DNA of 64,000 nt from Candidatus Uhrbacteria bacterium (GTDB lineage Bacteria > Patescibacteriota > Patescibacteriia > UBA9934). The first letter of the stretch is position 1. Each line of letters opens with the position of its first letter. The translations under genes and the position numbers were made by a program. The stretch is from NCBI GenBank assembly GCA_963822405.1, contig CAWGHH010000001.1, positions 227,717 to 291,716 of the forward strand, in the 5' to 3' direction. The notes beneath the pieces were generated by a model, which had not been told where the DNA came from, did no database searches, and saw nothing but the letters and a program-made list of their open reading frames with translations. Shown one piece after another: positions 14,236-33,086 of the stretch.

Positions 14236-14348
14236 TGCTATCTTGTGTCGTCCCTCCCATCCTGAGCGAGAGCGAAGGATCCGACTCTCAGGCCTGAGGG
14301 TCGGACTCTTCGCATGGCTCAGAGTGGGGACACATGGATAGACCTTTT

Positions 14349-15287
14349 ATGAAAATACTAGTCACTGGTGGCGAGGGATTTCTAGGTTCCCATATAGTCG
14401 ACGCGCTCGTAGCCCGAGGTGACGATGTTATTGCGGTTGACCACCATGCGCGGGAAAAAGTGCGCTACCCAAACCTTGGCGCGCGGATGATTTACGCGCG
14501 GTTTGGCGATCCGGTTGTTCGCGATGTGCTCATAAACGAACGGCCAGACGCCATTGTTCACGTAGCTGCGCAGATTAGTGTGACTAAATCTATCCGAGAT
14601 CCGCTTTATGATGCCCAGACCAACGTCATTGATGCGGTAAATTTATTGTCATGGGCTAAAGAAGCGGGTGTGCCTAGGATTGTTTTTGCTTCTTCGGGCG
14701 GGGCTATTTACGGTGATCATCCAGTCAGGCCAACGCCGATTATTCATAACCCTTCGCCTCTTTCTCCGTACGGAATAAACAAGTTCGGGTTTGAAAAATA
14801 TCTGGAGGGTTCCCGTGTGCTTGGTGGCCCGTCTGCTATTAGTTTACGTTTTTCAAATTTCTACGGTCCACGTCAACAGATTTCTAAAGAGTCCGGCGAG
14901 GGGAACGTGGTGACGCTATTTTTGAACCGGATTCTGGTTACTGGCCAGCCAATTACTATTTTTGGTGCAGGTGACGCTAGCAGAGATTATCTTTATGTTG
15001 ATGACGCGGTTAGCGTAATTCTTAAGGGTCTGGCTAGCGAGGTTGAAGGTCCTGTGAACATCAGCACCGGTCAGGCGGCGAGCATTCATGAGCTAGTAGA
15101 TCTTCTGATGGAGATCCATGGCCAGCCTCACGTTTTGAACTACGAACCATACCGTTCCGGAGAGGTTTACCACAGTGTTCTTGACCCCGAGTCGGCTGAG
15201 AGACTTCTTGGCTGGAAAGCGAAAATAGATTTGCGAGAAGGATTACGAAGAACCTATAATTGGTACAAAGAGACGTTCGGAGTTTAG
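14349..15287 (+). CDS. NAD-dependent epimerase/dehydratase, paralog
   Basis: MKILVTGGEGFLGSHIVDAL and YGINKFGFEKY; second SDR-extended family member in tandem. Confidence 0.8.
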   Translation: MKILVTGGEGFLGSHIVDALVARGDDVIAVDHHAREKVRYPNLGARMIYARFGDPVVRDVLINERPDAIVHVAAQISVTKSIRDPLYDAQTNVIDAVNLLSWAKEAGVPRIVFASSGGAIYGDHPVRPTPIIHNPSPLSPYGINKFGFEKYLEGSRVLGGPSAISLRFSNFYGPRQQISKESGEGNVVTLFLNRILVTGQPITIFGAGDASRDYLYVDDAVSVILKGLASEVEGPVNISTGQAASIHELVDLLMEIHGQPHVLNYEPYRSGEVYHSVLDPESAERLLGWKAKIDLREGLRRTYNWYKETFGV

Positions 15288-15290: not shown

Positions 15291-16085
15291 ATGCACGCCA
15301 AAAAATCATACGGTCAGCATTTTCTAAAAGACCAGTCGGTTATTGATAAAATAATTGCTGCGGCGGATATACAGCCCGGCGATATTGTGGTTGAAGTTGG
15401 TCCAGGAACTGGCGCGCTGACTAAGTCTCTTGCGCCAATTTCGTCGAAGCTCGTACTGATTGAGGCTGACGGTGAGTTGATTCCGAGCCTCACTGCTCAA
15501 TTTCCTTCCGCCGAAATCATCAAAGCCGACGCCGCGAAATTCGATTTCATGTCAGTTGCGAAAGGAGAGTGGATCTTCGTCTCAAATCTCCCCTATAACG
15601 CCGGCAACGCCATTTTGATGAACGTCCTCACTTCGAAAAATCCTCCGAAGCGTTCTGTAGTCATGTTACAAAAAGAGGTGGGGGAGCGAATGCTCTGGCT
15701 TGACCCAGGCGTTCTCTCTGTGGCTGTTCAGCTTTACGCACAGGTGGAAAAGGTGTGCATAGTTCCTCCTGGCGCGTTTTCTCCACCGCCGAAAGTTGAG
15801 TCGATTGTGCTCAGACTGATTCCATACCACCCGACCACTGACCCACTTCATGCCCTCCCCCCCGACCCCCTCCACTTCGTGGAGGGGGAGGAACTCGCTA
15901 AGCGAGTTCTAGCCATCGCGAAGGCTGGGTTTGCTAATAGACGGAAACAATTACATAAAAATCTGTCAGAGGCAGGACTTTTTACTAGTGAAGAAGTGAA
16001 ATCTAAACTTGTCGAGCTCGGACATTCGCCACTAGCACGAGCCGAAGAACTTTCATTAAAAGATTGGATTGCACTTTCCGAATAA
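15291..16085 (+). CDS. rsmA: 16S rRNA (adenine1518/1519-N6)-dimethyltransferase RsmA/KsgA
   Basis: KKSYGQHFLKDQSVIDKII...VVEVGPGTGALT and NLPYN motifs. The C-terminal part carries a GC-rich palindromic insert. Confidence 0.85.
   Translation: MHAKKSYGQHFLKDQSVIDKIIAAADIQPGDIVVEVGPGTGALTKSLAPISSKLVLIEADGELIPSLTAQFPSAEIIKADAAKFDFMSVAKGEWIFVSNLPYNAGNAILMNVLTSKNPPKRSVVMLQKEVGERMLWLDPGVLSVAVQLYAQVEKVCIVPPGAFSPPPKVESIVLRLIPYHPTTDPLHALPPDPLHFVEGEELAKRVLAIAKAGFANRRKQLHKNLSEAGLFTSEEVKSKLVELGHSPLARAEELSLKDWIALSE
15853..15890 (+). repeat. GC-rich palindromic element inside rsmA (CCCCCTCCAC-ttc-GTGGAGGGGG)
   Basis: Perfect 10-bp inverted repeat with a 3-nt loop, in frame, encoding PPDPLHFVEGE; related to the elements at 44107, 44998 and 63293. 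Confidence 0.5.
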
Positions 16086-16118
16086 AACCCAGAACCTTCC
16101 GTGTTATAATCCTGGGGT

Positions 16119-16808
16119 ATGGACGAAAAGGGTTTCGTTTTACAGGAGCCCCGGCCAGAGCTGGGGAAAGAACAAAAAGTTGGGTTATTTTTTGTTATAA
16201 TTTGTGGCGTAGGCGCTACAATTTTGGGCGTGTTCTATGTTTGGAATCACATGGCCTCGCCCTTCATCATCACTTACACGGGACCAAAGCTTTTAGTGGG
16301 GGATGAAGCCTCAGCAAATGCGATAGCTAAAGAAAAGGCTACAGATACAGATTTAGACGGTCTTTCAGATTACGATGAGAAGAATGTTTACGGCACCAGC
16401 CCGTATCTTTCCGACACAGATTCAGATGGCATTGATGACCGAACAGAAGTAACTACTGGTACAGATCCGCTTTGTAAACAAGGTTCCGTTTGTACGGCTG
16501 GTGTGGCGGATTCTGGCGCATTCATTCCAACCACAGGCGCCGGAACTTTCCTAAGTGACATTCCAAACCCAGGATCAGCCCCAGTCCCACCAAGTGGCGT
16601 GGGCGGGGACTCTACACTTTCCACAAGCGCTGTATCTGGAACTCTTACGGCTGCTGACATTGAAAGGCTGAAGTCCTTACCGATTGATCAAGTACGAACA
16701 ATCCTGATTTCCTCCGGCGCTGACCAAGCAACCGTCACTGCCCTAAGCGACGCCGATGTTCAAAAGGCTTACCTTGACCTCCTGGCCTCCTTGACCCCTA
16801 CCCAATAA
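16119..16808 (+). CDS. membrane-anchored protein with thrombospondin-type-3-like calcium-binding repeats
   Basis: N-terminal TM helix (VGLFFVIICGVGATILGVFYVW), then DTDLDGLSDYDE and DTDSDGIDDRTE (DxDxDGxxDxxE) repeats and a Gly/Ser/Pro-rich linker. Confidence 0.5.
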   Translation: MDEKGFVLQEPRPELGKEQKVGLFFVIICGVGATILGVFYVWNHMASPFIITYTGPKLLVGDEASANAIAKEKATDTDLDGLSDYDEKNVYGTSPYLSDTDSDGIDDRTEVTTGTDPLCKQGSVCTAGVADSGAFIPTTGAGTFLSDIPNPGSAPVPPSGVGGDSTLSTSAVSGTLTAADIERLKSLPIDQVRTILISSGADQATVTALSDADVQKAYLDLLASLTPTQ

Positions 16809-16811
16809 ATT

Positions 16812-19800
16812 GTGTCACAAAAGCTGAACACATCTTTGAAGTATTTATCCCGACTGACTGTCGGCATGTTGCTTTTATGGGTCATGATCATGCCAAAGGT
16901 CTCTCATGCTTTGGAGATTCCACTGCCTCCAGTTGTGAATACTGGATTAACGCAGGAAGCGGCAAATAGTATTAGTAATGCCGCGGGAGCTGTTCAGGCA
17001 CCCTCACCAATGGTGGTGACTGTAGGTGCAGATGTTCCTTCAACTCTGAAGGGTATTTTAGATTCCGTAAAAGAATACGCCAAAAGTTCGTTGACGGGAG
17101 CTATTGCGACATATCTTGTAAATCTTACTACTTTTGCGGCGGATGAAGCCGCGCGTGAGGCCGCGGTGCGTTTGGTGAACTCGGGTCCGGGCGGAACTCC
17201 GCTTGTTGATCAACATCCTTGGGATAGCTATCTGAAGGATGTGGGTGCAGCTTCTGCTGGGGAGGCGCTTGGTTTATTGAATGATGAGATTACTGGGCCT
17301 GGTAAGGTTCTTCAGAACTTTAATTTATGTGCTCCTGGTAATGCAAACGTGCTTCTGTCATTCAAATTTGGCATCAAATCTGTTTTTCAAAAGCAAACGC
17401 CAAAGTGTAAAGTTAACGAAGTTGTTTCAAATTGGAAGGGTTTTATTGCAGATGTTTCTACCCAGGTCGGTGGCGGTCAGGCACGCAATCAGCACATCTT
17501 GACGCAATTAGCCGATGCTTTTGACCCTAACACCAACGAATTCTCCGTCGGCGTATCGCTAACTTCGAATATTTTAAACAACTCACAGGAAAAGGCGACG
17601 CTTAAGGTTGAGCAGCGTTTGAGTCAAAATGGCTTTCAAGATGTCACTGATTTCATCTCTGGTCAGGTTAAGACCCCGGCGAGCATGATTGTTAATGATT
17701 ATCAGCAGAAATTTAACAAACAAGGTGAAACGCGAAATCAGCTAAGTACTGCATTGCTTTCTAATACTGATGTTCTTCTGCAGATTGGTTTGCATGCAGG
17801 TAGTGTATTCACGAACACATTGCTTTCCAAACTAACGGAGAAAATTTACAACGGGTGGTTTGACGTCAATCCTGCGTTACAAAATACGAATCCATTTGAT
17901 CCGAGTTCATTTGCGCAAAATAATTCCGATGTCGCAACGGCTCGTTTGCGATCTATTTTTACGGCCACGCCACTCGAAATCACAAATTATAGCATTTTAT
18001 CGGATTTTAGTTCTTGTCCCCAATCAAATCGGGGGATATATAACTGTGTTGCCGATAGTTCTCTTATTTCTGCTATTGCGCGGGCATCTTCTGGCGTGGC
18101 GGTAACCGTGCAAGAGGCGATGGATCAGGGTTTATTGAAGCCTGATTGGCCTCTCATTCCTAGTTCTGATCATGCTCGTAACCAGGATCCATTCTGTTAT
18201 ACATATGGATATTGTTACGCGAACCTAGTGAAGCTTCGTAAGGCACGCGTTGTTTCAGTTGGTTGGGAATTTGCCGCGGACTCAGAGTTTAACTCGTCTA
18301 CCAATCCAACTACCTTACGCAAAGTTGTAGCTGGATTCAACGATTGTGACGCCTCGGGACAGCCGGATACTAACCATCCGTGGTGCAAACTGATCGACCC
18401 TACTTGGGTGTTGAAATATCCACAGACTCAATGTCGTGCAGCTGTTAATGGTCAGCTTTTGACATCTGGTGCCGCGGATGAACGTCAAACAGAGTGCGTA
18501 GACATGCCTAGTTGTATTGCGGAAGATGAGAATGGGAATTGTACTGGGGGATACGGATATTGTGTGAAAGAGAAGAACGCTTGGCAGTTCAGGGGACAGA
18601 GCTGTCCTGCGCAGTTTGCGTCGTGTATTACGGTGAAGAATTCAGAGAAAACGGTTTCGTACTTAAGAAATACGACTGATCCAGGCCCATGTACAGAAGA
18701 TAACGCTGGTTGTCAGTGGTATGCCACACAGAAGACTAAGCAGACGGATGGTTCGTTTAAATTCCCAGCTACAAATGTTCTAGCGGATGATGTTGCAACT
18801 GACACTTATAAGAATAGAACATACTTTACTAGCAGCGTTGAAGCTTGTCAGGCTGAAAATGGGGGATGTAAGGAGCTTGTTGTGCGTGACGCCACCTTGA
18901 GTTTGAACATGCTAGTGAACCCAAACCTGGAAGATGATACAGATAATAACGCCAAGCCGGATGGTTGGATTTTTAGCGCGCCTTCTAGCTCAACATTAGA
19001 TACGGCAAGTGCGTTTAGCAGGTCAGGAAGTAAAGCTGTGAAGACTGGAACGGGAATTGTTTATGAGCCTGGAGTGGAGTTTTCTCAGGGACGTTTTTAC
19101 ACTATGTCATTTTATGCTCGGCAGACTGTTGCCGGCGGATCTGATATTGGTGACATGTTTATTGGCTTTAGCGCTGATGACGGTTCGGGTATTAATCTTG
19201 GTGGCACCAGCATAATGGCCGGTGCAAATTCGGCTTGTGTACTTAAGGATGGAAATAATGATGGAAAAATGGATGCAGTTGATGTAACCGGTAAGCCTAC
19301 TGGCACTGTGTACGAGCGTTTCTCTTGTACATTTACTTCGCCTATTCAAGCAAACTCGGCAGCTAGGTTGTTTGCCTTTGTTGACCTGATGCCTGGTAAC
19401 GCTTGGATTGATGATGTTCAAGTAGAGCAGGGGCCGAAGGTTACTAATTTCCACAGTGGCTATTCGTCGACCACGCTCGCAAAAGAAGTCGTGAAGGTTC
19501 CGCCGTCATATCTTGGTTGTACTGGCGCGTCGACTGATCCGGCAGAGTGCGCAAAATATGCCAAGGTTTGTTCTGAAAATGATAACGGCTGTAGCGCGTA
19601 TACGCCTGCAAATGGAGACCCCGTCGTTACAGGAGTTGTTGACCTCGGGCTTCCGCTCCCTATTGTTGATGGACAAGACGAATGTCCGGCCGCTTGTGTT
19701 GGCTACGATACTTATAGACAAGAAGGTTTCGACATGGCAAAGAATTCAGGATCACGATTTGAGCCAGATGGTGTTTTTCCGCTTTATTTAATTCCAAGCA

Positions 19801-22800
19801 CCGCCAAGACTTGTCGGGATCAAGACGTTGGTTGTGATGAGTTCACGAATCTTTCGGACGAGAGCAAATCGTACTTTACTTATGTCCGAGCCTGCGTGAC
19901 CCCAGCTCAAGCTGAGGCAAACACCGGTTCTGACAACTCGGCCACTTTCTATACATGGGAAGGCTCTGATAATTCCGGTTACCAGTTGAAGACCTGGGAT
20001 TTATTACAGTCGAATTTGGGCTTGTCGACGTATACCTATCAGAACTCGCTTGGAATCGACACCGCTCCAGGTAACGCCCCATGTGAGCACGGAGTAGCTA
20101 CGCCAAATGGCATGACTTGTGCTGATGCTGTTGATTCTAACGGTGACCAGAAATATGACTGGGATACGGCTAGTTGCGATGAACACTCTGACATTTTCTC
20201 GAATTCTGATTGTCGGGAATTCTATGACGCTAACGGCGTAATTCACTATCGTTTGTGGTCAAACACGGTGACTGTAGATGCGGCCTGTTCTACATATAGA
20301 AAGACAGACGTAGTTGGCGCCGATCTAACGGAGAAGCAGGCCACCTGTACAAGTTCGGGCGGTTTCTTTGATGTTCAAGCTGGTACTTGTAGATATTACG
20401 GGCTGGCTACTGGCAGCAAGACTTGTTCAGCGGCGGCTAACGGTTGTCGTTCCTACACTGGAGGCAGAAGCCGAAACAGTTTTGTGGCGTATCAAGATTT
20501 GGTCGAGGACGGAAATCTGACTAAGTGGACTTCGGCTGTGCCGGCATCGCTCGTTTACAGTAACGAGTCACTGGCAACTGGCGGTCATTCTATTTCCACC
20601 AGTGCTCCTTTTGCTACATTGTCGAGCTCACTTACAGGCAAGCTACCTGCCAGCCGAACTTACACCTTGTCGTTCTTAGCTAAGGGAACCGGCACGCTCC
20701 AGGCTGGATTTGATTATCAAGCAGCTGTCGCTTCACCTACGATCGACTTAGCCTTTGGTTCGGTCACTGTTTCTCAGGGTTGGCAGCAGTATTCGCTTGG
20801 CCCACTAGACATGAGCAGTGTCTCAGCTATCTTTGGTAACGGGACGGCGCTCGCTTTTGTCCCGGCTGGTAACGTATTCGTTGATAATATTATTCTTCGA
20901 GCCGGCCAAGATAACATTACGCTCATCAAGAATTCATGGTCTACGCCAGCTGCTTGTGATCTGACGCCAACCGGCGCGCCAGCTCCGCAGTATTACTTGG
21001 GTTGTCAGCAATATTCTACGCAGACCGGTACTAAAGTTAACGTGAAGAGCTTTAGCAAGCTTTGCTCTGCAGATAAAGTTGGTTGCGCTAGCTTCTTCAT
21101 GACCGAGGAGAGTGCCTCGCCTCATGCTGAGGTTCATAACGCCACTTGTGGAACTATTGGCGGAGCAATTGCTACCGTTTCTACGGCTTGTCATTACGGT
21201 GTAAATGCTACTGCGTATGACATTACTACTCCGCTTCTTTGTACCATTGGTGTCGGCTCGAACAGCTGTCCATTTAATTTGAACTGGTATGTTGCCCCGG
21301 CTAATTTGCCAGCCCATCTAAAATACGCGCCGTCTACGGTCATAACGCCAGCCGATAAAGACGTGTTCCTGGTGGTGACAGATGACAAGAAGTGCGCCTC
21401 TGACGCTGCTGGTTGTACGGAATACGGTAAGCCAACTTACAATCAAGCTCGAACTGCTACAACCGGCGCGACGAGCAAGTTCTTGAAGAATAATCCGGCT
21501 AAGTATGTAGCATCTGGAGCGGATAAATCGATTCTTTGTTCGCAAAACGCGCTTTACTGTTCTGCTTGGACGGGAACTGGTGGCACGCAGTATTACTTTA
21601 AGGATCCAATCAATCAGACTTGTGAGTACAAGACAAACGTTAGCGTTGGCACTGTTTCCTACAGCGGTTGGTTCAAGACGGGCACCTCGGAACTTTGTTA
21701 CAACACTCCAAACTACGTCATTGGCGGAAACATGAGTGGTATTTGGAAGAATGGTGATGCGAACTATGCTGGCTGGGTTGGTACTTGTTCTACTCAGTAC
21801 AACTCCTGTTCCGAGTACCAGGATCCACTCGCCATCAAGACGAATGAAATCTACGGTAACTCTGATGGCACGCCGTATTTCACTCTTTCAACGTCACTTG
21901 GTTCTTCACGTTCGTCCGTTACTGGTACAGATTGTAACGGCAAAGTTTCATTAAAAGGCGGTTGCGCTCTGTTTAATGACACTTCCGTTTCTAGAAAGAC
22001 GGCTAACGCGTCAGCTACTGAAATGGCTTCTCGCCATGCTGATAAGTTATTTAACACTGAGCCTTATTCATTAGTCGATCCAATCGACTGTGACAGTAAC
22101 GCCACCGTCATTCACACACCTTCCAGTGGCGACGTTGATCTTTGTGCAAAACGGTGTGCCTATAGAGAGGGAAGTGTAAAAGACCTTACCAAGCCTGATA
22201 GCAATACTCCTATTTACGGATCTTCTTGTTACACCTCTGAGGACTGTGCGCCAGTTGATAGTGAATATGGCGAACGCGTGAAGGCCACAGGTTGTGACGC
22301 TGCAACTGCTGCTTTGCGTCTAAAAGATGACGCTAACACTGTTTTGGCCGTAAACCGAAACCGTGAATGTTCAGAATGGCTGTCTTGCGCTAACGCTCAA
22401 ACCGTTTGGGATGACGCTTCTAGCAGCTACAAGACAATCTGTGATCAGGTAGCTCTCTGTACGGAATATTCCGCTCAGGGTAGCTCCTCTTTCTGTTCAA
22501 AATGGAACTTTGATGCGCCAAAAGTAGTTCTTACTAATGACCGTTACACTTCTCGTGATGTCAGCTGGTACGGCAGTGAATACTCCGGAATGTCTATTCC
22601 TAATCTCTTCTCCGTCGAGGCCTTAGAGCAAGCAAACGTAGCGCCCAAGTTTACTTGTGATCTTTCCAAGCTACAAGATGGAGGTTCTGACAACGTAGAT
22701 CTTGCATATTTCAATGCAAACAACGGCAAATGGTGCTCTCTTGATGCGGAGTGCGGCACGGGTGCAAAATTCGTTGGTACATGTTCCGGCCCACAGGGCA

Positions 22801-25703
22801 ATGACGTTCGCCTAATATTGAACGCTGGAACATGTACTCAGGCGTACGGTCAGGCTTGCGCGGTAGGTACATGTGCGAATACCGGTGCGGCTTGTGCTAG
22901 ACAGGATCAATGCGGCACTACCGGTGGTGCCTGTGTAGTTGGCCAGTGTTATGCGCCTTCCTTAATAGTTCAGTCTTGCTTTAGTGACTCAGATTGTGGC
23001 GGCGGAGGTAAGGTTTGTTTGGGCAGCGTTTGTGCCTCAAAAGGAAATGTAGTGGTTACAGATACCCCAGCTTCAGGTCAAAGCTTATACAAACCAACGG
23101 AGGTTAATAAAGGTTGTGGTACTACGAATAAGTTTGTCAAATCAATCAATCTCAAGGACGGCACCTGTGTAAATGAAAAGTGTTTGCTAGCCCCAGACGG
23201 AAATGCCTTTGCTTTTGGAACTACAGAGGGAAAATCTTGCAAGGCATATCCAGAAACTACCAGCCCATTCTCGTCGGAAGTTGTTACGAACTGGTTTGAT
23301 ACCCTCGAGCAAAAGGTGTTAGTGGCGGATGTGCCAACATATGACGACATTCCTTACCAAAAGAGGTATGGATTTGAGCAGGCGAATACTTGTGCTCCGG
23401 GACAGGATTGTGTCTGCAGCTACAAGAAGGTGACATATTCTCAAGTTACGGGTGCACGGTATTTTGGTAAAACAACTGCAATAAATGGTCGTGGAATTTG
23501 TAGTTCTGGTCCTTATGTTAATAAATCATGTGACACCTATCTAGATTGTTCTAATACCACAGCGCTTGGAGAATGTTCGAAGCCTACTCGCGAAGACATT
23601 CTTCTTGGTATGGACGGTTATTGTTTGGAGCGTGATACGTCTATTAATGTGAACGGTGATCGTAATCAAAGTGCATGTATCAATTGGCTTCCTGTTGACC
23701 AGTTAGCCGGTAGCTCTGACCTTTATGGGAAGAGTACGGAGGCGGGATACTTTAAGGATACATGGGCTTGTGCTGAAACGGATATGTATGCGCAGTTGGC
23801 GCCAAGTCAGGTGCAGGCTACCGCTACTTCTGGTTGGAATGGTTTAACTACAATTGCTTGTGCCGTGTCTAATAATGGAATAATGAGTGCAGAAAAGTCA
23901 TTCGACGCTACTACCGTAAGTAGCTGTCTTAAGAACGCTACATGTCCGGCCGGGTACTGGGCATTGATCGGGCAACCGCACTGGATTGATAGGGGAAATA
24001 ATGGACATATTGCCGACGCATGCAACGTAGGAAACAATGATTGTCCATACGAATGTATTCCTATTGGATCATTTGTTGGAACGCAGTCCTGCGATATCAC
24101 TGGATCGTTCACTACCTCGCAGGCGGTTCCTATTTCGACGGCCAGAGAATCTACAAAACCGAATAACCGTATCGTAGGAATGGATCCTGGCACTGACAAG
24201 GTGGATACCGGTTTATCAAATTTTGATAAATTAGCAAAAGCCCTGTCTCTTTGTCGCACTCCTGCCGTGCTTTGGGATGACTCGATGCCAACCTTGCTCC
24301 ACACGATCTCTACGCCACCCGATCTGTCAAAATATTACAATCTAACCTTCACTCAGAAAAATCCTGACCCAGACGGCTACGAAATTATAGATGCTGTACG
24401 TTTCCCAGCTTGTAAGCAGGTGGTAAAAGTCAGTGACGGTAATATTTTTGCAGGTGCCGCTTGGACTGATCGTATGTTGAATCCGACTTCTGGTTTCGCG
24501 ATTGATAGTTCAGAGGGATCGGTGCGTTACACGTTGGATACTGCTAAACAGCCATATGGTCTTATTTTGGACGATGCGACCACACGTAAGGCACCTTTAT
24601 CTCCTTATGCGGTAGCGAGCTGTCAAAATAAGCAAACCGGGTCATTAATTTCAACGCCTTTGGGTACTGCGCCGTTTAATGTTTGCTATCCGTCAGGCCG
24701 ATGGATGCCGTATTCATCCGTTCCGGCAACTGATCCGGTTGCTCCAGAGGCTCGGTCATTTGTTGGGTTCGATATCAATACTAATGGTAACGGTTACGCT
24801 GGTCAGTGGCTTCCAAAGGGGACCTATTCGAATGCAGTAACGAATATTACACAACTATTCGCTAATCTGAATATTGGAGTCACTGGATCTTGGCGAAAGT
24901 GGACAAGCTGGGTTCCTTCGGGGTCTGTTAGTGGGGCAAACTTGAAGTATGAAACTGTATCTCCGCCAACGGCAGCTCTTGATGTCCGCGCCACGGAAGG
25001 CAATCCGCCAAAAATTTGGGCCATTGATCCGGCTACTTGTAACGGTTCTGAGTGTGAAGAGGGGCCATTAAATGCGATAACGGTTAATGACCAGAATACG
25101 GGGAATGTTTCTTCTTCAGACTTCCTCCGTGCCAGTGTAAAATTCTACGCGGCCGCAGATAAGAATCAGTTGCCATTGCGCCGTGTAATCATGGATTGGG
25201 GAGATGGTAACGAATCCGGTTCCGCCGCCGATGACAACTTCTATAAGAATCACCGCGGTCTTGAGCCAAACAGCACCGTCAGTAAGTGTGACGGCACCTC
25301 CGGCGAATGGGGTCTGACCGCAGAAAGCTGTGATCCAAATTACATCACCTACAGCCATATTTACACCTGTTCGTCTTCTACGCTTCTCAGCACACATGAT
25401 TGTACGGACACTAATAATGACGGCAAATTCGATAACGCGCCATGTATCAAAGAGCCCCGCACCATCGGCGCATCCTGCGTCTACCAGCCACGCGTGCATA
25501 CGAGAGATAATTGGGGGTGGTGTACGGGAGTTTGTACATTGGGAACTGATGGGAAGAGCGGATGTTATGCGGGAAATACCTATAGTGTGAATAGTGCTAA
25601 TGATGTAATAGATAGTGAGTGTTCGTACGGAATATATCCAGATCAAAATTCTACGAATGATCCATGGGTCTATTACAACGGACAGATAGTCGTGAAGCCA
25701 TAA
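16812..25703 (+). CDS. giant (2963 aa) secreted Cys-rich protein with C-terminal PKD domain
   Basis: GTG start. Signal peptide MSQKLNTSLKYLSRLTVGMLLLWVMIMPKVSHA; composition rich in T/S/G/N/D/C; recurring C-x(3-4)-[ND]-G-C-x-x-[YF] modules (CSENDNGCSAY, CRDQDVGCDEF, CASDAAGCTEY, CSAAANGCRSY); PKD-type motif MDWGDGNESGS...ITYSHIYTC near the C-terminus. Confidence 0.7.
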   Translation: MSQKLNTSLKYLSRLTVGMLLLWVMIMPKVSHALEIPLPPVVNTGLTQEAANSISNAAGAVQAPSPMVVTVGADVPSTLKGILDSVKEYAKSSLTGAIATYLVNLTTFAADEAAREAAVRLVNSGPGGTPLVDQHPWDSYLKDVGAASAGEALGLLNDEITGPGKVLQNFNLCAPGNANVLLSFKFGIKSVFQKQTPKCKVNEVVSNWKGFIADVSTQVGGGQARNQHILTQLADAFDPNTNEFSVGVSLTSNILNNSQEKATLKVEQRLSQNGFQDVTDFISGQVKTPASMIVNDYQQKFNKQGETRNQLSTALLSNTDVLLQIGLHAGSVFTNTLLSKLTEKIYNGWFDVNPALQNTNPFDPSSFAQNNSDVATARLRSIFTATPLEITNYSILSDFSSCPQSNRGIYNCVADSSLISAIARASSGVAVTVQEAMDQGLLKPDWPLIPSSDHARNQDPFCYTYGYCYANLVKLRKARVVSVGWEFAADSEFNSSTNPTTLRKVVAGFNDCDASGQPDTNHPWCKLIDPTWVLKYPQTQCRAAVNGQLLTSGAADERQTECVDMPSCIAEDENGNCTGGYGYCVKEKNAWQFRGQSCPAQFASCITVKNSEKTVSYLRNTTDPGPCTEDNAGCQWYATQKTKQTDGSFKFPATNVLADDVATDTYKNRTYFTSSVEACQAENGGCKELVVRDATLSLNMLVNPNLEDDTDNNAKPDGWIFSAPSSSTLDTASAFSRSGSKAVKTGTGIVYEPGVEFSQGRFYTMSFYARQTVAGGSDIGDMFIGFSADDGSGINLGGTSIMAGANSACVLKDGNNDGKMDAVDVTGKPTGTVYERFSCTFTSPIQANSAARLFAFVDLMPGNAWIDDVQVEQGPKVTNFHSGYSSTTLAKEVVKVPPSYLGCTGASTDPAECAKYAKVCSENDNGCSAYTPANGDPVVTGVVDLGLPLPIVDGQDECPAACVGYDTYRQEGFDMAKNSGSRFEPDGVFPLYLIPSTAKTCRDQDVGCDEFTNLSDESKSYFTYVRACVTPAQAEANTGSDNSATFYTWEGSDNSGYQLKTWDLLQSNLGLSTYTYQNSLGIDTAPGNAPCEHGVATPNGMTCADAVDSNGDQKYDWDTASCDEHSDIFSNSDCREFYDANGVIHYRLWSNTVTVDAACSTYRKTDVVGADLTEKQATCTSSGGFFDVQAGTCRYYGLATGSKTCSAAANGCRSYTGGRSRNSFVAYQDLVEDGNLTKWTSAVPASLVYSNESLATGGHSISTSAPFATLSSSLTGKLPASRTYTLSFLAKGTGTLQAGFDYQAAVASPTIDLAFGSVTVSQGWQQYSLGPLDMSSVSAIFGNGTALAFVPAGNVFVDNIILRAGQDNITLIKNSWSTPAACDLTPTGAPAPQYYLGCQQYSTQTGTKVNVKSFSKLCSADKVGCASFFMTEESASPHAEVHNATCGTIGGAIATVSTACHYGVNATAYDITTPLLCTIGVGSNSCPFNLNWYVAPANLPAHLKYAPSTVITPADKDVFLVVTDDKKCASDAAGCTEYGKPTYNQARTATTGATSKFLKNNPAKYVASGADKSILCSQNALYCSAWTGTGGTQYYFKDPINQTCEYKTNVSVGTVSYSGWFKTGTSELCYNTPNYVIGGNMSGIWKNGDANYAGWVGTCSTQYNSCSEYQDPLAIKTNEIYGNSDGTPYFTLSTSLGSSRSSVTGTDCNGKVSLKGGCALFNDTSVSRKTANASATEMASRHADKLFNTEPYSLVDPIDCDSNATVIHTPSSGDVDLCAKRCAYREGSVKDLTKPDSNTPIYGSSCYTSEDCAPVDSEYGERVKATGCDAATAALRLKDDANTVLAVNRNRECSEWLSCANAQTVWDDASSSYKTICDQVALCTEYSAQGSSSFCSKWNFDAPKVVLTNDRYTSRDVSWYGSEYSGMSIPNLFSVEALEQANVAPKFTCDLSKLQDGGSDNVDLAYFNANNGKWCSLDAECGTGAKFVGTCSGPQGNDVRLILNAGTCTQAYGQACAVGTCANTGAACARQDQCGTTGGACVVGQCYAPSLIVQSCFSDSDCGGGGKVCLGSVCASKGNVVVTDTPASGQSLYKPTEVNKGCGTTNKFVKSINLKDGTCVNEKCLLAPDGNAFAFGTTEGKSCKAYPETTSPFSSEVVTNWFDTLEQKVLVADVPTYDDIPYQKRYGFEQANTCAPGQDCVCSYKKVTYSQVTGARYFGKTTAINGRGICSSGPYVNKSCDTYLDCSNTTALGECSKPTREDILLGMDGYCLERDTSINVNGDRNQSACINWLPVDQLAGSSDLYGKSTEAGYFKDTWACAETDMYAQLAPSQVQATATSGWNGLTTIACAVSNNGIMSAEKSFDATTVSSCLKNATCPAGYWALIGQPHWIDRGNNGHIADACNVGNNDCPYECIPIGSFVGTQSCDITGSFTTSQAVPISTARESTKPNNRIVGMDPGTDKVDTGLSNFDKLAKALSLCRTPAVLWDDSMPTLLHTISTPPDLSKYYNLTFTQKNPDPDGYEIIDAVRFPACKQVVKVSDGNIFAGAAWTDRMLNPTSGFAIDSSEGSVRYTLDTAKQPYGLILDDATTRKAPLSPYAVASCQNKQTGSLISTPLGTAPFNVCYPSGRWMPYSSVPATDPVAPEARSFVGFDINTNGNGYAGQWLPKGTYSNAVTNITQLFANLNIGVTGSWRKWTSWVPSGSVSGANLKYETVSPPTAALDVRATEGNPPKIWAIDPATCNGSECEEGPLNAITVNDQNTGNVSSSDFLRASVKFYAAADKNQLPLRRVIMDWGDGNESGSAADDNFYKNHRGLEPNSTVSKCDGTSGEWGLTAESCDPNYITYSHIYTCSSSTLLSTHDCTDTNNDGKFDNAPCIKEPRTIGASCVYQPRVHTRDNWGWCTGVCTLGTDGKSGCYAGNTYSVNSANDVIDSECSYGIYPDQNSTNDPWVYYNGQIVVKP

Positions 25704-25713
25704 GAAAAAAATC

Positions 25714-25770
25714 GAGCCCCGTGGTGATGGGTTTGGCACCGCCAAACCCTTACGTCACGGGGCTTTTGCG
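25714..25770 (+). terminator. nested hairpin/terminator after the giant gene
   Basis: GAGCCCCGTG ... CACGGGGCT followed by TTTTG; the inner palindrome GGGTTTGGCaccGCCAAACCC occupies 25729-25749. Confidence 0.45.
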
Positions 25771-26490
25771 TTACGTGATATTTGGATGGGGATTGGGATT
25801 ATTCCGGTCACGTTCCCATTTGGCGGGGTTTTCGCGGATGTATTCCTGGATTCGTTTTAAATCACTCTTTCCTCTGATAATATGTTCGTAATAATCCCGT
25901 TGCCATAATTTTCCGATTCTTCCAACCTTTCCGAATCGATGACCTTTGGCGTATTCATTATAAAATGCGTTCGTGGTCATCGTCTTGAACCATTGGACGA
26001 AATCCGGAATTCCTTTAAACGCGCTCGCGTCCTCTCCATAACCGGCCGTCCCGGCCGCCGTTGGGGTCGACCCATGCGTCGACCCTTTCCCATCCTCCGA
26101 ACCGTTTTCGGATTTTAACGTCGACCTCTTTTCATTTCTTACCCGCGAAACGATTTCTATAATCCCGTGAAAATGATTGGGCATGGTTACGAATTCATGG
26201 ATACGAATTCCCGGAAATTTCTCCGGTAATTTATTCCAAAATTTATCCACGATCATTCCGTATTCATTTAATTCCATTATCGAAGGTGGATTTGTGCGAG
26301 GGTCGACGCATGGGTCGACCCCAACCTCGCGGATCACGCCGAACCATTCGATTCGGTCTTCGGTGACGGGATTAATAAAATAATATCCGGGTTGGGAGTA
26401 ATCGTATCCCTTTAAACGTAATTCCTTCCTACCGATTTCTTTCCATGAAAACATAAAACCCCATTTGTTTGGCCGATATGCGTCGGTCAT
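25771..26490 (-). CDS. IS200/IS605 family Y1 (HUH) transposase, RAYT-like
   Basis: HUH motif MPNHFHGIIEI and a C-terminal LWQRDYYEHIIR catalytic Tyr region. An insertion-like Gly/Ser-rich segment is present, and a 23-bp inverted repeat pair lies inside the coding sequence. Confidence 0.7.
   Translation of the reverse strand: MTDAYRPNKWGFMFSWKEIGRKELRLKGYDYSQPGYYFINPVTEDRIEWFGVIREVGVDPCVDPRTNPPSIMELNEYGMIVDKFWNKLPEKFPGIRIHEFVTMPNHFHGIIEIVSRVRNEKRSTLKSENGSEDGKGSTHGSTPTAAGTAGYGEDASAFKGIPDFVQWFKTMTTNAFYNEYAKGHRFGKVGRIGKLWQRDYYEHIIRGKSDLKRIQEYIRENPAKWERDRNNPNPHPNIT
26060..26082 (+). repeat. 23-bp palindromic repeat GGGGTCGACCCATGCGTCGACCC (left copy) inside the transposase gene
   Basis: The exact reverse complement is present at 26300-26322; each copy contains the self-complementary GGGTCGACCC. 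Confidence 0.55.
26300..26322 (+). repeat. 23-bp palindromic repeat (right copy, inverted)
   Basis: GGGTCGACGCATGGGTCGACCCC, the reverse complement of 26060-26082; the pair brackets the HUH core of the transposase ORF. Confidence 0.55.
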
Positions 26491-26633
26491 TTACGCCTGG
26501 GGAGTTATCTATATTGCACCATGGATTTTCCTGTGTTGTACGTGCCGTGTGGATATATAAGAAAACCCCGCCATCTCTCCAGAGGGCGGGGCTTGCGTCA
26601 AGCGTGAACTGACGTTCAGTCCTGATTTCCGTT

Positions 26634-27428
26634 TCAGTACTGCCAGTCACACTGGACGTCGGCGACGTATTGGTACGGGCTGTTGTCAACAACCGTCACC
26701 GAGAAACTTTTTCCGAGCACGACCACCGTATTTTCCAGGTAATAGGGGGCGGGTGGGTTACTAGTCTCAGAGGCCTCAACCCCGTTCACCAGAAGAACAA
26801 TTTGATCGTTTTTCAATTGCATTTCATCGCCAGCATGTCCGACGACGCTCATGTTCGGATTATCCTGCGGATGGATTTTTCCATCCTGATCGATCTTGAT
26901 TACCTGATTATCGAGATCGTGATGACCAAAGGATTCACCTTTGTGGCCATCCGCTGACGTGCTGTACCGCCACTTGTCGTACCCGCACGCGTACGTGCCG
27001 GGTTCGATGGTCTTGTGGAGATCGATGCGGACGGGGGCGGGGACGTTCAGCTGAACGGAGAAGTCCACGGGCATGGCGGCCCAGGGGTTTCCTTCGCCGT
27101 CCATGTACACGGGGTAGCCGAACTGGCCGGCTAGCGTCGGATCTCCCGCTTCCGCCGTGTAGTCGCCGGGGGCGTCCACGGGCTGCGTGTCACCGCTCGT
27201 CAGGGAGTAGTCCTTCGTCGGACCATAGAGGTACACGAGGGCATCGTCCGTGACGGAGGTGAGCTTGAAGACGTCCACGGTCACGGGCGCGAAGCCGGTG
27301 ACGGAAGTGTCTCCAGTGTCGCTCGTGTCGCAGGTCTGGCAGGAGTCCGTATCGGTCTCCTGACAGTCTTTGCACGGGTGGCAGGCGGTGAGGAGGGCGA
27401 GGATGCTGATGAAAGGAACGATGCGCAT
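26634..27428 (-). CDS. hypothetical lipoprotein (GC-rich)
   Basis: Lipobox ILALLTAC, then a Cys/Asp/Thr-rich linker (CKDCQETDTDSCQTCDTSDTGDT) and a beta-rich domain. A terminator hairpin lies at 26566-26600 on the coding strand. Confidence 0.5.
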   Translation of the reverse strand: MRIVPFISILALLTACHPCKDCQETDTDSCQTCDTSDTGDTSVTGFAPVTVDVFKLTSVTDDALVYLYGPTKDYSLTSGDTQPVDAPGDYTAEAGDPTLAGQFGYPVYMDGEGNPWAAMPVDFSVQLNVPAPVRIDLHKTIEPGTYACGYDKWRYSTSADGHKGESFGHHDLDNQVIKIDQDGKIHPQDNPNMSVVGHAGDEMQLKNDQIVLLVNGVEASETSNPPAPYYLENTVVVLGKSFSVTVVDNSPYQYVADVQCDWQY

Positions 27429-27693
27429 TGGCGTGTCTCCTGAAAGAAGTGAAGGCTGGGTTTTACCCCGCCCTGGTGAGAACTACGGCCAGGCACTCGC
27501 CCGGCTGGTATGCTGAGATTAGCAGAAAAATGGGAAAAAGTCAACGGATGTGTACAAATAGTGGATTTGGTCGGACAAAAAGGCCTATTTAGAGAAAATA
27601 TCCACAGGATTACAGAGCGGTAGTTTTTAGCTATTTTGTTTGACCTGGCCACGTTGTCCGTATATCGTTACCTGATCATTCTTTATAGAGAGT

Positions 27694-28152
27694 ATGGCCT
27701 GTATTTTTTGTGACATCGTATCGGGGCATGTTCAGTCTTATAAAGTTTGGGAAGATGAAAAGCATCTTGCTTTTTTATCCATTTTTCCTAATACAGTGGG
27801 TGCTACTGTGGTTATACCAAAGAGCCATCACCCGAGTTATGCTTTTGATCTCCAAGATGATGTTTTATGTGATCTAGTGAAGGCTACAAAGCAGGTTGCC
27901 CAGCTTCTTGATAAAAGTTTCGAAGATGTTGGTCGTACGGGCATGGTGTTTGAAGGATTTGGTGTGGACCACGTACACGCGAAACTATTCCCGATGCATG
28001 GCACGAAGATTGCTTCATGGAAAGCTATTCATTCGACGCTGCGTACATTCTATGCAACGTATCCAGGGTATATCGCTTCACACGACGGCGATCGGATGAG
28101 TGACGAGCTCCTTGCGGATACTGCAAAAAAGATAACCGACCTCAATAAATAA
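27694..28152 (+). CDS. HIT family (histidine triad) hydrolase
   Basis: CIFCDIVSG N-terminus and histidine triad VDHVHAKLFP. Confidence 0.8.
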   Translation: MACIFCDIVSGHVQSYKVWEDEKHLAFLSIFPNTVGATVVIPKSHHPSYAFDLQDDVLCDLVKATKQVAQLLDKSFEDVGRTGMVFEGFGVDHVHAKLFPMHGTKIASWKAIHSTLRTFYATYPGYIASHDGDRMSDELLADTAKKITDLNK

Positions 28153-28154
28153 AA

Positions 28155-28192
28155 GGACGGGCCGCACCACTAGGGTACGGCCCGTTTTGTTA
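28155..28192. terminator. bidirectional hairpin terminator between convergent HIT and aaRS genes
   Basis: ACGGGCCG-13 nt-CGGCCCGT followed by TTTTGTT; the complement gives a T-rich run on the other strand. Confidence 0.5.
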
Positions 28193-29506: not shown

Positions 29507-29531
29507 TGTGCCTCCTAGAGTTGTACTGATG

Positions 29532-30851: not shown

Positions 30852-30959
30852 AACGCACCACCAAGCTTGATTGGTTCATCCAATGCTCCCCTGTGAAGCA
30901 TTCGGACCCTTGATCTTGGCTAAAATGAGAGATTCTGTCAAGCTATCGGAGGAGGTCTC

Positions 30960-31987: not shown

Positions 31988-32040
31988 GTAAGTACAACGA
32001 TAAAGACCCCGGACACGTCGTGCTCCGGGGTCACCTTTTT

Positions 32041-33039: not shown

Positions 33040-33086
33040 TCCCATTAACAGGCTATTTTTCTGTTTTTGCCTAAACTAAACCGCAC

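Follow-up and report, generated by a model that had tools for sequence, protein, structure and literature searches.

The locus analysed here raises the question of why a Patescibacterium with a genome of 1.0 Mb keeps a gene for a secreted protein of almost 3,000 residues, and what this protein does at the cell surface. The gene takes up 0.89% of the genome, a cost from which strong selection for its retention is implied, and the other genomes that carry homologues are also of about 1 Mb. Patescibacteria account for a large part of the diversity of bacteria, and the ways in which they attach to their hosts and exploit them are largely unexplained. The features of the giant gene, of the small gene that precedes it and of their surroundings in the window (the whole stretch of 64,000 nucleotides of Candidatus Uhrbacteria DNA that was analysed) are listed in Table 1.

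Table 1. Position of the features discussed in the text (nucleotides of the window; aa, residues of the respective precursor).
Feature	Position	Strand	Details
ksgA (rRNA adenine dimethylase)	15291-16085	+	Pfam RrnaAD, E 4.5e-48
Small partner gene	16119-16808	+	229 aa, ATG start; open reading frame exactly as first called
Small partner, TM helix	16179-16235	+	aa 21-39; Kyte-Doolittle 19-residue mean 2.54
Small partner, two TSP3-type repeats	16344-16472	+	aa ~76-118; Pfam TSP3_bac, 2 stretches
Giant gene	16812-25703	+	2,963-aa precursor, GTG start; full-length collinear homologues
Giant, Sec signal peptide	16812-16910	+	aa 1-33; predicted cleavage after SHA (...MIMPKVSHA/LE)
Giant, N-terminal Cys-poor domain with conserved motifs	16989-18011	+	aa ~60-400; all-helical prediction, AF2 pLDDT <50
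Giant, most conserved Cys-rich core	18015-18881	+	aa ~402-690; windowed conservation, invariant columns
Giant, supermodule copy 1 (C-x6-C hairpin, CBM, YLGC...CSExDVGC hairpins)	18825-19844	+	aa ~672-1011; hhalign
Giant, CBM4/9/16/22-type beta-jelly-roll domain 1	18894-19451	+	aa ~695-880; PF02018, Foldseek, AF2
Giant, supermodule copy 2, with second CBM4/9-type jelly roll (aa ~1225-1362)	20403-21425	+	aa ~1198-1538; hhalign
Giant, dense cysteine-knot-like cluster	22656-23183	+	aa ~1949-2124; 26 Cys, spacings mostly 5-10
Giant, most variable region	24099-25001	+	aa ~2430-2730; 7-33% identity, many indels, AF2 pLDDT <50
Giant, strongly conserved extreme C terminus (...DPWVYY[ND]GxIxVxP-COOH)	25620-25700	+	conservation 0.61 at aa 2951-2963
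Peptidase_M23 peptidoglycan hydrolase	34408-36174	+	588 aa; PF01551 E 1.1e-14; NCBIfam peptidoglycan hydrolase matches
p983, polytopic membrane protein	36243-39194	+	~10 TM segments in aa 20-455, ~500-aa hydrophilic C-terminal part
p548, conserved position, no recognisable domain	39213-40859	+	
PrgI family (VirB3-like) membrane protein	40883-41323	+	146 aa; PF12666 43.7 bits (cut-off 27); same position in p983-centred loci
TrsD/TraC-like, resembles N-terminal part of VirB4	41335-42030	+	231 aa; NCBIfam, below curated cut-offs
VirB4-like T4SS ATPase	42033-43952	+	639 aa; NF045971 341.6 bits (cut-off 325); PF19044 P-loop_TraG E 2.2e-27
p187, bitopic membrane protein after VirB4	43956-44519	+	TM aa 7-25; ~180-aa gene at same position in p983-centred loci
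RecG	54091-55968		

Both open reading frames of the original prediction were recovered with exact coordinates. The GTG start and signal peptide that it had assigned to the giant are backed by the homologues, nearly all of which, among those listed, have a canonical signal peptide with ...PK.A.A at its end. The start codon lies 3 bases after the small-partner gene. The public gene call of an identical protein (P0001, 2939 aa) begins at M25 and has thereby lost the signal peptide, which is the sole strongly hydrophobic stretch of the giant. The mature protein has ~2,930 aa, 312 kDa, a pI of 4.8 and 120 Cys, and its composition (S 9.7, A 9.3, T 9.1, G 8.4, D 6.6, N 6.5 and C 4.05%) agrees with its earlier description as rich in Thr, Ser, Gly, Asn, Asp and Cys. 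As to sortase or other anchoring signals, the giant contains none: no TM segment, no lipobox, no LPxT[GASN] anywhere in the sequence and, at the C terminus (...NGQIVVKP), neither a hydrophobic tail nor LPXTG. Promoter and terminator scans gave results at chance level.

Apart from unusual length and a non-ATG start, nothing suggested that the giant is an artefact, be it a mis-assembly of repeats or an over-extended reading frame, and we consider the chance of this negligible. Besides the identical P0001, more than 100 collinear full-length homologues are present in public assemblies, a relative is encoded in 471 genome stretches of GTDB species representatives, and 1,152 representative clusters match the N-terminal part. 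Collinear homologues of ~3,000 aa fall into more than 1,100 clusters at 50% identity; the family spans ~2,700-3,900 aa, and even its distant giants are true collinear homologues, with E values of 1e-246 to 1e-277. At the DNA level, TRF detected no tandem repeats in 16000-25800 save one 28-nt trace. A chimeric mis-assembly of repeats, raised at the outset as the alternative, is excluded because DNA tandem repetition is absent and hundreds of independent assemblies contain collinear homologues. The family is annotated as 'hypothetical' throughout, and a literature search found no description of it. The giant and its small partner are a conserved, previously undescribed family in ultra-small Patescibacteria.

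The cysteines had been thought to belong to many copies of a C-x(3-4)-[ND]-G-C-x-x-[YF] module, forming repeated disulfide-stabilised units. This motif occurs in 2 copies only (aa 920 and 1205); what recurs instead is a looser C-x6-C hairpin, often C-x5-G-C-x-x-[YFW], which is the true recurrent element; 16 consecutive Cys pairs have a spacing of 7 compared with 3.8 ± 1.9 (maximum 10) in shuffled sequences. Profile self-comparison with hhalign revealed a single duplication, of aa ~672-1011 against aa ~1198-1538 (probability up to 95.7%), in which the duplicated unit is a hairpin-CBM-hairpin supermodule whose hairpin HMMs cross-match. About 85% of the giant is unique, collinear sequence, so the notion of an array of repeated units did not hold.

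The cysteine framework itself is very strongly kept: 118 of the 120 Cys are retained in at least 85% of 40 homologues with 31-63% identity, and mean Cys conservation across 215 homologues is 91%. Motifs of the CxxCH and CxxC types are absent (zero of each), which rules out a haem or Zn-ribbon reading of the cysteines, and an RTX reading of the Asp content is ruled out by the lack of GGxGxD; DxDxDG motifs are likewise missing from the giant. For 30 of 64 variable Cys columns the best-correlated partner in presence and absence was the sequence-adjacent Cys, as against ~1.7% expected by chance, and six Cys pairs were substituted jointly without gaps. This covariation is only partly usable for assigning disulfide connectivity because many of the paired losses are joint deletions. 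Judging from the sequence, some 59 mostly local disulfides are probable. For a bacterial protein, the combination of a non-repetitive chain of ~3,000 residues, about 59 probable disulfides and hardly any recognisable domains is unusual, and makes the giant a good target for structural biology as well as a useful lineage marker.

Searches of Pfam, NCBIfam and PDB with the whole giant and with a 40-sequence profile returned nothing except CBM_4_9. PF02018 matched the window protein with 27.9 bits (cut-off 25.9) and all 16 of 16 diverse family members (best E 7.1e-12). Over the first of the two domains, AF2 pLDDT reached 80-90, and Foldseek against PDB matched CBM16 2zey with E 4.8e-6 and TM 0.67; together with 3oea, 2xon, 1gui and 4xup (E 4.8e-6 to 4e-4, probability 1.0, target TM 0.5-0.67), the matches cover families CBM16, CBM4, CBM22 and CBM61. 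Foldseek also places this type of fold in phage tailspikes and in receptor-binding modules of binary toxins. The second domain matched the laminarinase CBM4 1gui in the PDB profile search (E 0.0026, profile positions 1254-1342). By HMM and by fold these domains resemble CBM4, CBM9, CBM16 and CBM22 modules, and they have the motifs characteristic of CBM_4_9, NPxFE at the N terminus and DDV at the C terminus. The two jelly rolls were absent from the original prediction, according to which the repeat module has no obvious counterpart among named domains; this remains true of the Cys hairpin module, which is unassigned, but the two CBM_4_9 domains do map to a well-known family, which for these segments partly refutes the original reading. 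That the giant binds carbohydrate through them is assumed from the fold.

CBM4/9 modules usually accompany glycoside hydrolases. Unlike the usual CBM_4_9 modules, those of the giant have no recognisable glycoside hydrolase attached and are set between the disulfide hairpins of the duplicated supermodule. If the giant were a secreted enzyme or wall-degrading factor that attacks host polysaccharide or peptidoglycan, with CBMs for targeting and a catalytic domain hidden in ~2,500 unassigned residues, the laminarinase, endoglucanase and xylanase contexts of the CBM matches would be accounted for, large parts of the protein with low-confidence models could harbour such a domain, and a preprint entitled 'Giant genes are rare but implicated in cell wall degradation by predatory bacteria' points, by its title, in the same direction; giant genes of other ultra-small or predatory bacteria have been connected with the degradation of cell walls. 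However, no catalytic domain was detected by Pfam (window protein and 16 diverse members) or NCBIfam (window protein), nor any catalytic family by PDB profile or fold search, in line with the earlier remark that enzymatic motifs are not evident, and the invariant residues are mostly Cys, Gly, Pro, Trp and Tyr, with no recognisable catalytic constellation. We therefore consider an enzymatic role very unlikely.

Near the C terminus, where a PKD domain had been proposed, the motif is indeed present: DWGDG (aa 2795-2799) and YSHIY (aa 2847-2851) are both conserved, and WGDG...YxHxY resembles the WDFGDG...HxY of PKD domains (PF00801/PF18911) from archaeal surface-layer proteins, collagenases and PrtV. 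The domain assignment fared less well. Between the two halves of the motif lies a ~45-residue insertion with two conserved Cys pairs, which canonical PKD domains do not have; Pfam PKD models gave no match to the window protein at E <= 1 and to 0 of 16 members at E <= 0.5, the alignment profile matched no PKD-containing PDB chain at E <= 1, and Foldseek found nothing significant with the C-terminal AF2 model, which is of low confidence. A C-terminal PKD/Ig-like sandwich is thus weakly supported.

The AF2 models were built from a 26-row alignment and had a mean pLDDT of ~57 and a pTM of 0.31-0.41, and they are not reliable for the helical domain at the N terminus or for the majority of the Cys-rich regions; fold searches outside the confident islands carry no meaning, and because of these poor models the statement that ~85% of the giant is without known fold is a weak one. 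One confident island (aa ~415-535) lies within the Cys-rich core, which shows a mean identity to the query of 57-67% over aa 401-600, holds an invariant ...DPxCYTYGYC..NLVKLRKAR... motif and the first C-x6-C hairpins, and found neither a sequence match in the PDB profile search nor a fold match with Foldseek. The Cys-poor region that precedes it is always N-terminal in the 1,152 representative clusters and is a candidate anchor-interaction domain. The cysteine-knot-like cluster differs in length among homologues and is variably conserved, with Cys gained and lost in blocks, and the most variable region of the giant is a candidate for the part that determines specificity.

The giant had been put forward as an extracellular protein for host attachment, and its export, its cysteine richness and its occurrence in small-genome Patescibacteria are consistent with this; it is, on the other hand, not a modular repeat adhesin. 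It belongs to the same size class as Bap, RTX adhesins, SiiE, LapA and the Apilactobacillus proteins Giant1-5 and, like them, is extracellular, has an acidic pI and has been proposed to act in contact between cells. Whereas those proteins have tens of near-identical Ig-like repeats in variable copy number and very few Cys, the giant has one duplication and no repetition at the DNA level, and in its family the length is constant (~2,700-3,900 aa) and the Cys framework invariant. A tandem-repeat giant adhesin with Bap, RTX or BIg arrays was rejected on the basis of the single hhalign duplication, the absence of arrays in TRF and the lack of GGxGxD and DxDxDG. In classical S-layer proteins Cys is scarce, and SLH or comparable modules bind the wall. 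An S-layer protein was also rejected, given the Cys content of 4.05% and the lack of any SLH or S-layer family match in Pfam and NCBIfam (16 members by Pfam).

The small gene upstream encodes, as predicted, a protein with a TM anchor and TSP3-like repeats. It is a type-II single-pass membrane protein in which the helix is followed by extracytoplasmic TSP3 repeats, two paired Cys, a linker and a helical part at the C terminus. TSP3_bac (PF18884) was matched with 29.3 bits (cut-off 25), the DxDxDGxxDxxE motif is present, and the alignment of small partners keeps DTDxDGLxDYDE...DSDSDG with D76, T77, D78, D80, G81, D84, D86, E87, D99, D101, S102, D103, G104 and D107 invariant. Against PDB profiles the protein matched 7c7u, the Ca-binding region of a biofilm-associated surface protein, with E 1e-5. 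From the motif, the repeats would be expected to bind Ca2+. Like other bacterial TSP3-repeat proteins, among them surface proteins with calcium-binding linkers such as OmpA-like proteins, CglD and MtsD, the small partner has canonical DxDxDGxxDxxE repeats, two in number, that score above the cut-off of Pfam, and it gave weak NCBIfam matches to the TSP3 regions of CglD and MtsD. Unlike these proteins, the small partner is short and single-pass, keeps a juxtamembrane SPF..YTGP motif of its own, has a C-terminal helical region and is invariably paired with the giant gene. In all 77 loci with upstream DNA it is found immediately 5' of the giant on the same strand, mostly with a gap of 0-16 nt, and the same adjacency was observed in Buchananbacteria, Komeilibacteria, Falkowbacteria and two further lineages. 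In our reading the two genes form one conserved unit, probably with coupled translation, whose products would make up a structure on the cell surface; in this structure we propose the small partner as the membrane tether of the giant.

This unit has a fixed place on the chromosome. ksgA always lies immediately upstream of the pair: it was found there in 51 of 51 loci that extend 8 kb or more in this direction and also in the distant-lineage loci L085, L086, L087, L090 and P0155, and all loci examined, whether from Uhrbacteria, Buchananbacteria, Komeilibacteria or Falkowbacteria, have the order ksgA, small anchor, giant. ksgA marks the conserved position of the module and has no part in its function. 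In the Uhrbacteria-type loci, surface-glycan genes are close by (two NAD-dependent sugar epimerases/dehydratases and Wzy_C, with a glycosyltransferase in L003). Two minus-strand genes just after the giant, an IS200-like Y1_Tnp remnant (4 of 35 loci) and a 264-aa Cys-rich lipoprotein-like open reading frame (6 of 35), were left out of the system because they are not conserved.

Downstream in the window lies a T4SS-like cluster of the monoderm (MPF_FATA-like) type (Table 1), a linkage that the original prediction lacked, as it did the ksgA-anchor-giant context. Its first gene encodes the M23 hydrolase, in the position expected for a VirB1-like enzyme; it follows the giant in 31 of 35 Uhrbacteria-type loci (median distance 4.0 kb), and p983 does so in 22 of 35, both counts being limited by flank length. 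p983 has no Pfam or NCBIfam match and none to VirB6, TrbL or PrgH HMMs; by topology and position it is a candidate 'extended VirB6'-type channel subunit. The TrsD/TraC-like gene matched NCBIfam VirB4_plasma (E 4.4e-7), TrsD (E 6.2e-5) and the CD1110 N-terminus (E 6.9e-5), and PF26593 TraC-like matched its orthologues in p983-centred loci. NF045971, matched by the ATPase that follows, is the VirB4-like conjugal transfer ATPase of the CD1110 family, and p187 could, from its position, occupy a VirB8-like slot. Neither a relaxase nor a coupling protein was seen among the scanned ORFs of the window, and T4SS clusters of Patescibacteria are mostly without relaxase (PMC12102498).

The giant gene of the window is not in one operon with the T4SS cluster, because 8.7 kb with opposite-strand and unrelated genes separate them. 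The link that we draw between them comes from synteny. In each of three p983-centred loci the giant lies 4.3-6.4 kb upstream of a p983-PrgI-TraC-like-VirB4 series, and in L086 and L087 the p983 homologue (E 2e-41 and 3e-14) starts 9 and 25 nt, respectively, after the giant. In the P0155 locus, the giant is followed by two small unannotated genes, with no p983 within the flank.

The same synteny could arise if the giant were a housekeeping scaffold of the envelope (a wall strut, a sheath or a shape or division factor) whose CBMs bind the cell's own wall glycan, the T4SS genes being part of the chromosomal backbone near ksgA. In the Uhrbacteria-type loci of these streamlined genomes, unrelated housekeeping genes (ksgA, a prfA/B-like release factor gene and groEL) are as syntenic as the T4SS genes are, and the single chromosomal position by ksgA with surface-glycan genes nearby would also be expected of a scaffold. 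So would the extreme conservation of length, collinearity and Cys framework over at least 1,100 clusters from several candidate phyla: such a near-invariant sequence and Cys framework are unusual for an adhesin that sets host range, and fit structural housekeeping equally well. What argues against a scaffold is that in distant lineages, where the epimerase/release factor/GroEL block is swapped for LeuRS, Sua5 and RNA polymerase, ksgA-anchor-giant(-p983) persists although the other neighbours change, that p983 abuts the giant in two lineages, and that the giant has no SLH or similar wall-binding module. A scaffold role is, in our judgement, possible but doubtful.

The linkage to p983 and VirB4 also speaks against a stand-alone adhesin that works independently of the T4SS, alone or with type IV pili, on hosts or on polysaccharide particles, as does the lack of the repeat arrays and rapid divergence typical of such adhesins. 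A secreted, disulfide-rich giant with two CBMs and an Ig/PKD-like domain, a variable stretch at aa ~2430-2730 that could set specificity, and a small genome with a presumed episymbiotic lifestyle would nevertheless suit it, and we regard this explanation as unlikely.

A closer parallel for the preferred role, host attachment in conjunction with the T4SS, is offered by the PrgB/aggregation-substance adhesins of MPF_FATA T4SSs. In pCF10, the adhesin gene is upstream of genes for VirB6-like, PrgI (VirB3) and VirB4 proteins and wall hydrolases. Like PrgB, the giant is a large surface protein that is exported by Sec and whose gene precedes T4SS genes on their own strand. The differences are considerable: the giant has no polymer-adhesin (GbpC-type) domain by Pfam or NCBIfam (16 members) and no LPXTG sortase signal, is ~2x the length of PrgB with ~118 conserved Cys, would be tethered via a separate TM/TSP3 protein whereas PrgB is attached covalently to peptidoglycan, and is chromosomal and conserved at class level whereas PrgB is plasmid-borne. 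Moreover, its neighbouring T4SS belongs to a relaxase-less kind (PMC12102498), unlike the conjugative systems of the pCF10 type. PrgB binds a surface polymer of the partner cell for T4SS contact (PMC12857230), and we propose the same for the giant. Gram-positive T4SSs depend on surface adhesins such as PrgB rather than on pili, and S. epibionticum, the sole Patescibacterium tested, cannot grow as an epibiont without its T4SS (PMC12857230); a dedicated survey found no adhesin for Patescibacteria T4SSs (PMC12102498). The giant family is a concrete candidate for this missing surface component.

Host attachment is the most plausible role of the giant, and the specific reading that we favour, with a probability of roughly 0.45, is that of a membrane-tethered, disulfide-rigidified, glycan-binding surface fibre which serves as host-contact module of the Patescibacteria T4SS. 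After export, the giant would be oxidised, presumably by an MdbA/VKOR-type pathway (MdbA-like oxidoreductase and VKOR are enriched in CPR; PMC6744442), into a rigid multi-domain fibre or scaffold of ~312 kDa, locked by its some 59 mostly local disulfides. Its attachment to the cell may be non-covalent, through the small Ca2+-binding tether in the membrane, and the two would probably meet at the Cys-poor helical N-terminal domain of the giant and the C-terminal helical region of the tether. The CBM modules and the variable C-proximal region would then bind glycans on the surface of the host or partner cell, and the resulting docking of the episymbiont would allow the adjacent relaxase-less T4SS to operate. 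The giant would in this way be a functional counterpart of PrgB-type adhesins, unrelated to them in sequence and architecture.

In a bolder form of this reading, which we consider improbable, the anchor and the giant would be an integral extracellular part of the T4SS itself, a Ca2+-tethered docking stalk or conduit beside the extended-VirB6-like p983 that bridges the wall of the episymbiont to the envelope of the host and replaces a pilus or outer-membrane core complex; if true, the T4SSs of ABY1-type lineages would be an architectural class of their own, new among such systems. A different surface structure, the Pam pilus of CPR bacteria, has been described in a preprint, concerns other classes and is unrelated to the giant family.

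The two adjoining plus-strand ORFs of the original prediction were borne out at exactly the coordinates first given, and both the giant protein and its TSP3 partner are real (see table). Only three bases separate the two ORFs, and from its GTG start the giant carries a predicted signal peptide (...MIMPKVSHA before LE), which was its only clearly hydrophobic stretch in a hydrophobicity scan. Start and signal peptide, both proposed earlier, are upheld by the homologues, since nearly all those listed have canonical signal peptides ending in ...PK.A.A; because of these the GTG was preferred over the M25 start of P0001, the public call of an identical protein. That call (2,939 aa) drops most of the signal peptide (window 16812-16884), which is regained in canonical form, as in the homologues, from the GTG 3 nt past the small-gene stop. 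S, A, T, G, D and N are abundant in the giant, which has 120 Cys (4.05%), and the mature protein has a computed size of about 2,930 aa and 312 kDa and a pI of 4.8. Motif and hydrophobicity scans of the whole protein detected neither LPXTG nor a C-terminal hydrophobic tail, and the whole-protein motif scan was also negative for CxxC, CxxCH, RTX and TSP3. The small protein has a single TM helix (aa 21-39), two TSP3_bac repeats scoring over the Pfam threshold, a conserved Cys pair and a helical C-terminal region, and could act as the membrane tether of the giant.

Features encoding the giant protein, its small partner, the variable island and the T4SS-like cluster (window positions)
Feature	Position	Strand	Remarks
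Small-protein ORF	16119-16808	+	229 aa, ATG start
Giant ORF	16812-25703	+	2,963 aa, GTG start
IS200-like Y1 transposase remnant	25771-26490	minus	variable island
Lipoprotein-like Cys/Asp/Thr-rich ORF	26634-27428	minus	264 aa; variable island
M23 peptidoglycan hydrolase	34408-36174	+	before p983
p983	36243-39194	+	about 10 TM segments and large hydrophilic domain (TM scan); heads cluster
p548	39213-40859	+	without recognisable domain
PrgI/VirB3	40883-41323	+	PF12666, 43.7 bits vs 27
TrsD/TraC-like protein	41335-42030	+	NCBIfam hits below curated cut-offs
VirB4-like ATPase	42033-43952	+	NF045971, 341.6 bits vs 325
p187	43956-44519	+	bitopic (TM scan)

More than 150 full-length collinear homologues of the giant (2,900-3,400 aa, 31-63% identity) came up in a word-indexed search, all annotated as 'hypothetical' and originating from Patescibacteria or Candidatus Uhrbacteria, and scanning a single genome for each GTDB species found 471 stretches encoding a relative. 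When aa 60-695, the N-terminal part of the giant free of CBM, was used as query, an exhaustive HMMER search gave 1,152 clusters with E <= 1e-3, of which 825 reached E <= 1e-30, and it always matched the N-terminal end of proteins of about 2,700-3,870 aa. No tandem repetition was found in the gene at the DNA level, and profile self-comparison of the protein revealed one duplication only, a supermodule of about 340 aa (aa ~672-1011 versus ~1198-1538) made up of a hairpin, a CBM and YLGC...CSExxVGC hairpins, outside which the sequence is unique. The giant gene is real and belongs to a large family; the many-repeat architecture initially proposed does not hold, and the motif C-x(3-4)-[ND]-G-C-x-x-[YF], expected in many copies, occurs only twice.

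What does recur is a C-x6-C hairpin, frequently in the form C-x5-G-C-x-x-[YFW], and consecutive Cys pairs at spacing 7 numbered 16, versus 3.8 ± 1.9 in shuffles. Of the 120 Cys, 118 were conserved in 85% or more of a set of 40 homologues, and mean Cys conservation was 91% in 215 homologues; haem and zinc-ribbon Cys spacings were not found in the giant. Of the 64 Cys columns that vary, 30 correlated best in presence/absence with the sequence-adjacent Cys (chance about 1.7%), many paired losses being joint deletions and hence uninformative for pairing. Gap-free joint substitution was observed in six pairs (173/199, 462/468, 512/525, 1859/1877, 1883/1895 and 2194/2200), and the Cys missing from three distant homologues had likewise been lost as adjacent pairs. 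These sequence data fit, short of proof, mostly local disulfides. The giant is secreted, anchorless and locked by its Cys framework, probably through disulfides, for which the reported enrichment of CPR genomes in MdbA-like thiol-disulfide oxidoreductase and VKOR (PMC6744442) makes an oxidation pathway plausible. A DsbA/Thioredoxin_4 gene near ksgA (rRNA adenine dimethylase), the anchor and the giant in one of two lineages (P0155 locus, L085) may bear on oxidative folding.

CBM_4_9 was the one Pfam family found in the giant; the window protein scored over its gathering threshold, and 16/16 diverse members had it. Searching PDB sequences with a profile picked up the second CBM copy, which matched CBM4 of laminarinase 1gui. 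For aa 36-1225 and 1764-2963, AF2 gave models of low overall confidence (pLDDT about 57), with four confident islands (aa ~415-535, 705-875, which is the CBM, 1005-1215 and ~2733-2903). In Foldseek the first model matched only CBM16/4/22/61 jelly rolls (E 5e-6, TM 0.67), a fold shared by phage tailspike and binary-toxin receptor-binding modules. Some 360 residues at the N-terminus are conserved, have few Cys and are helical by low-confidence AF2 prediction. The giant thus has two CBMs and, at its C-terminus, a putative Ig/PKD-like domain; because the structure models are weak, a hidden enzymatic domain is possible.

The small TM/TSP3 gene lay directly 5' of the giant gene, on the same strand, in 77/77 loci with upstream DNA, usually with a gap of 0-16 nt, and was preceded by ksgA in 51/51 loci. 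Through homologues of the small protein, the same order was reached in Candidatus Buchananbacteria, Candidatus Komeilibacteria, the JGI lineage and another Patescibacterium (P0155 locus), whose giants are true collinear homologues (E 1e-246 to 1e-277, 25-28% identity, 104-113 Cys). Candidatus Falkowbacteria, with a giant known as an N-terminal fragment (E 8e-81), has this order plus a small extra gene between small gene and giant; its 125-aa product belongs to the '23S_rRNA_IVP' family (PF05635; L090, 10826-11203), and it breaks the otherwise tight coupling. The membrane-anchored TSP3 protein is an obligatory partner of the giant, and the pair is kept across several candidate phyla, which we take to be GTDB class ABY1. 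Giant and anchor make up a large and ancient family of two genes, wholly lacking annotation, in ABY1-type Patescibacteria, as assigned from the taxon labels of the records and ABY1 loci described in PMC12102498; a literature search found no paper describing the giant-protein family. Many module-bearing MAG records (L005-L084; TPA_asm bulk submissions, e.g. L081, OZ246408.1) are titled 'uncultured Gammaproteobacteria bacterium', and a further one 'Candidatus Kapaibacterium'; these titles look like placeholder or wrong taxonomy because the records agree with Uhrbacteria-type genomes in gene content and synteny. A complete 1.0-Mb chromosome is among them. Upstream of the module, surface-glycan/lipid-modification genes at 5864-9088 and 13318-15287 (LPG_synthase_TM, an unannotated 298-aa ORF, a Wzy_C O-antigen-ligase-like gene and two NAD-dependent sugar epimerases/dehydratases) are present in Uhrbacteria-type loci and absent from the distant lineages examined.

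The giant is located beside a monoderm-type T4SS cluster. This cluster (34408-44519, plus strand) looks complete, and no relaxase was seen among the window ORFs scanned. A p983 homologue is the next gene after the giant in Komeilibacteria (9 nt) and the JGI locus (25 nt), and in Uhrbacteria-type loci the two are set apart by a short island of variable content plus M23; M23 was found downstream of the giant in 31/35 loci (median 4 kb). In three p983-centred loci on other contigs, with the giant 4.3-6.4 kb upstream of p983, the order was giant, p983, p585-737, PrgI, TraC-like, VirB4 and a ~180-aa gene. Patescibacteria T4SSs are MPF_FATA-like and chromosomal, usually lack a relaxase and have KsgA abundant near virB4, with comF, recG and radA among the genes of ABY1-class loci (Quinonero-Coronel et al., 2025, PMC12102498); RecG is encoded at 54091-55968. 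Also described are 'extended VirB6' proteins, whose hydrophilic domains are large (PMC12857230).

From gene context and domain content we infer that the giant would form a rigid fibre, held by disulfides, that attaches to glycans on the host surface and supplies cell-cell contact for the T4SS, a role analogous, not homologous, to that of PrgB. Gram-positive T4SSs need surface adhesins instead of pili, and S. epibionticum cannot grow on its host without its T4SS (2025 review, PMC12857230). The main rival, a housekeeping envelope scaffold with incidental T4SS synteny, is favoured by the extreme conservation of the giant and by equally conserved housekeeping neighbours; against it, ksgA-anchor-giant(-p983) stays while other neighbours change. 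The pair is of greater interest than a generic giant adhesin.

VirB4 function is split over two ORFs 2 nt apart (41335-43952), the first encoding a TrsD/TraC-like N-terminal part of 231 aa and the second an ATPase of 639 aa; the split recurs in three other lineages and agrees with the TrsD observation in PMC12102498. After p187, a small double-zinc-ribbon ORF (44486-44863) is possibly a ComF N-terminus. VirB2-like pilins are reported for Patescibacteria, and T4SS_pilin (PF18895) genes less than 10 kb upstream of ksgA-anchor-giant in the P0155 locus and L085 may bear on them. The variable island between giant gene and T4SS cluster (25771-34400) also holds HIT, Asn/Asp-tRNA synthetase, amidohydrolase and alpha/beta hydrolase genes, and its GC reaches 0.51-0.57 versus about 0.47 elsewhere; its content varies between genomes, with Y1_Tnp-like genes again found at this position in other lineages.
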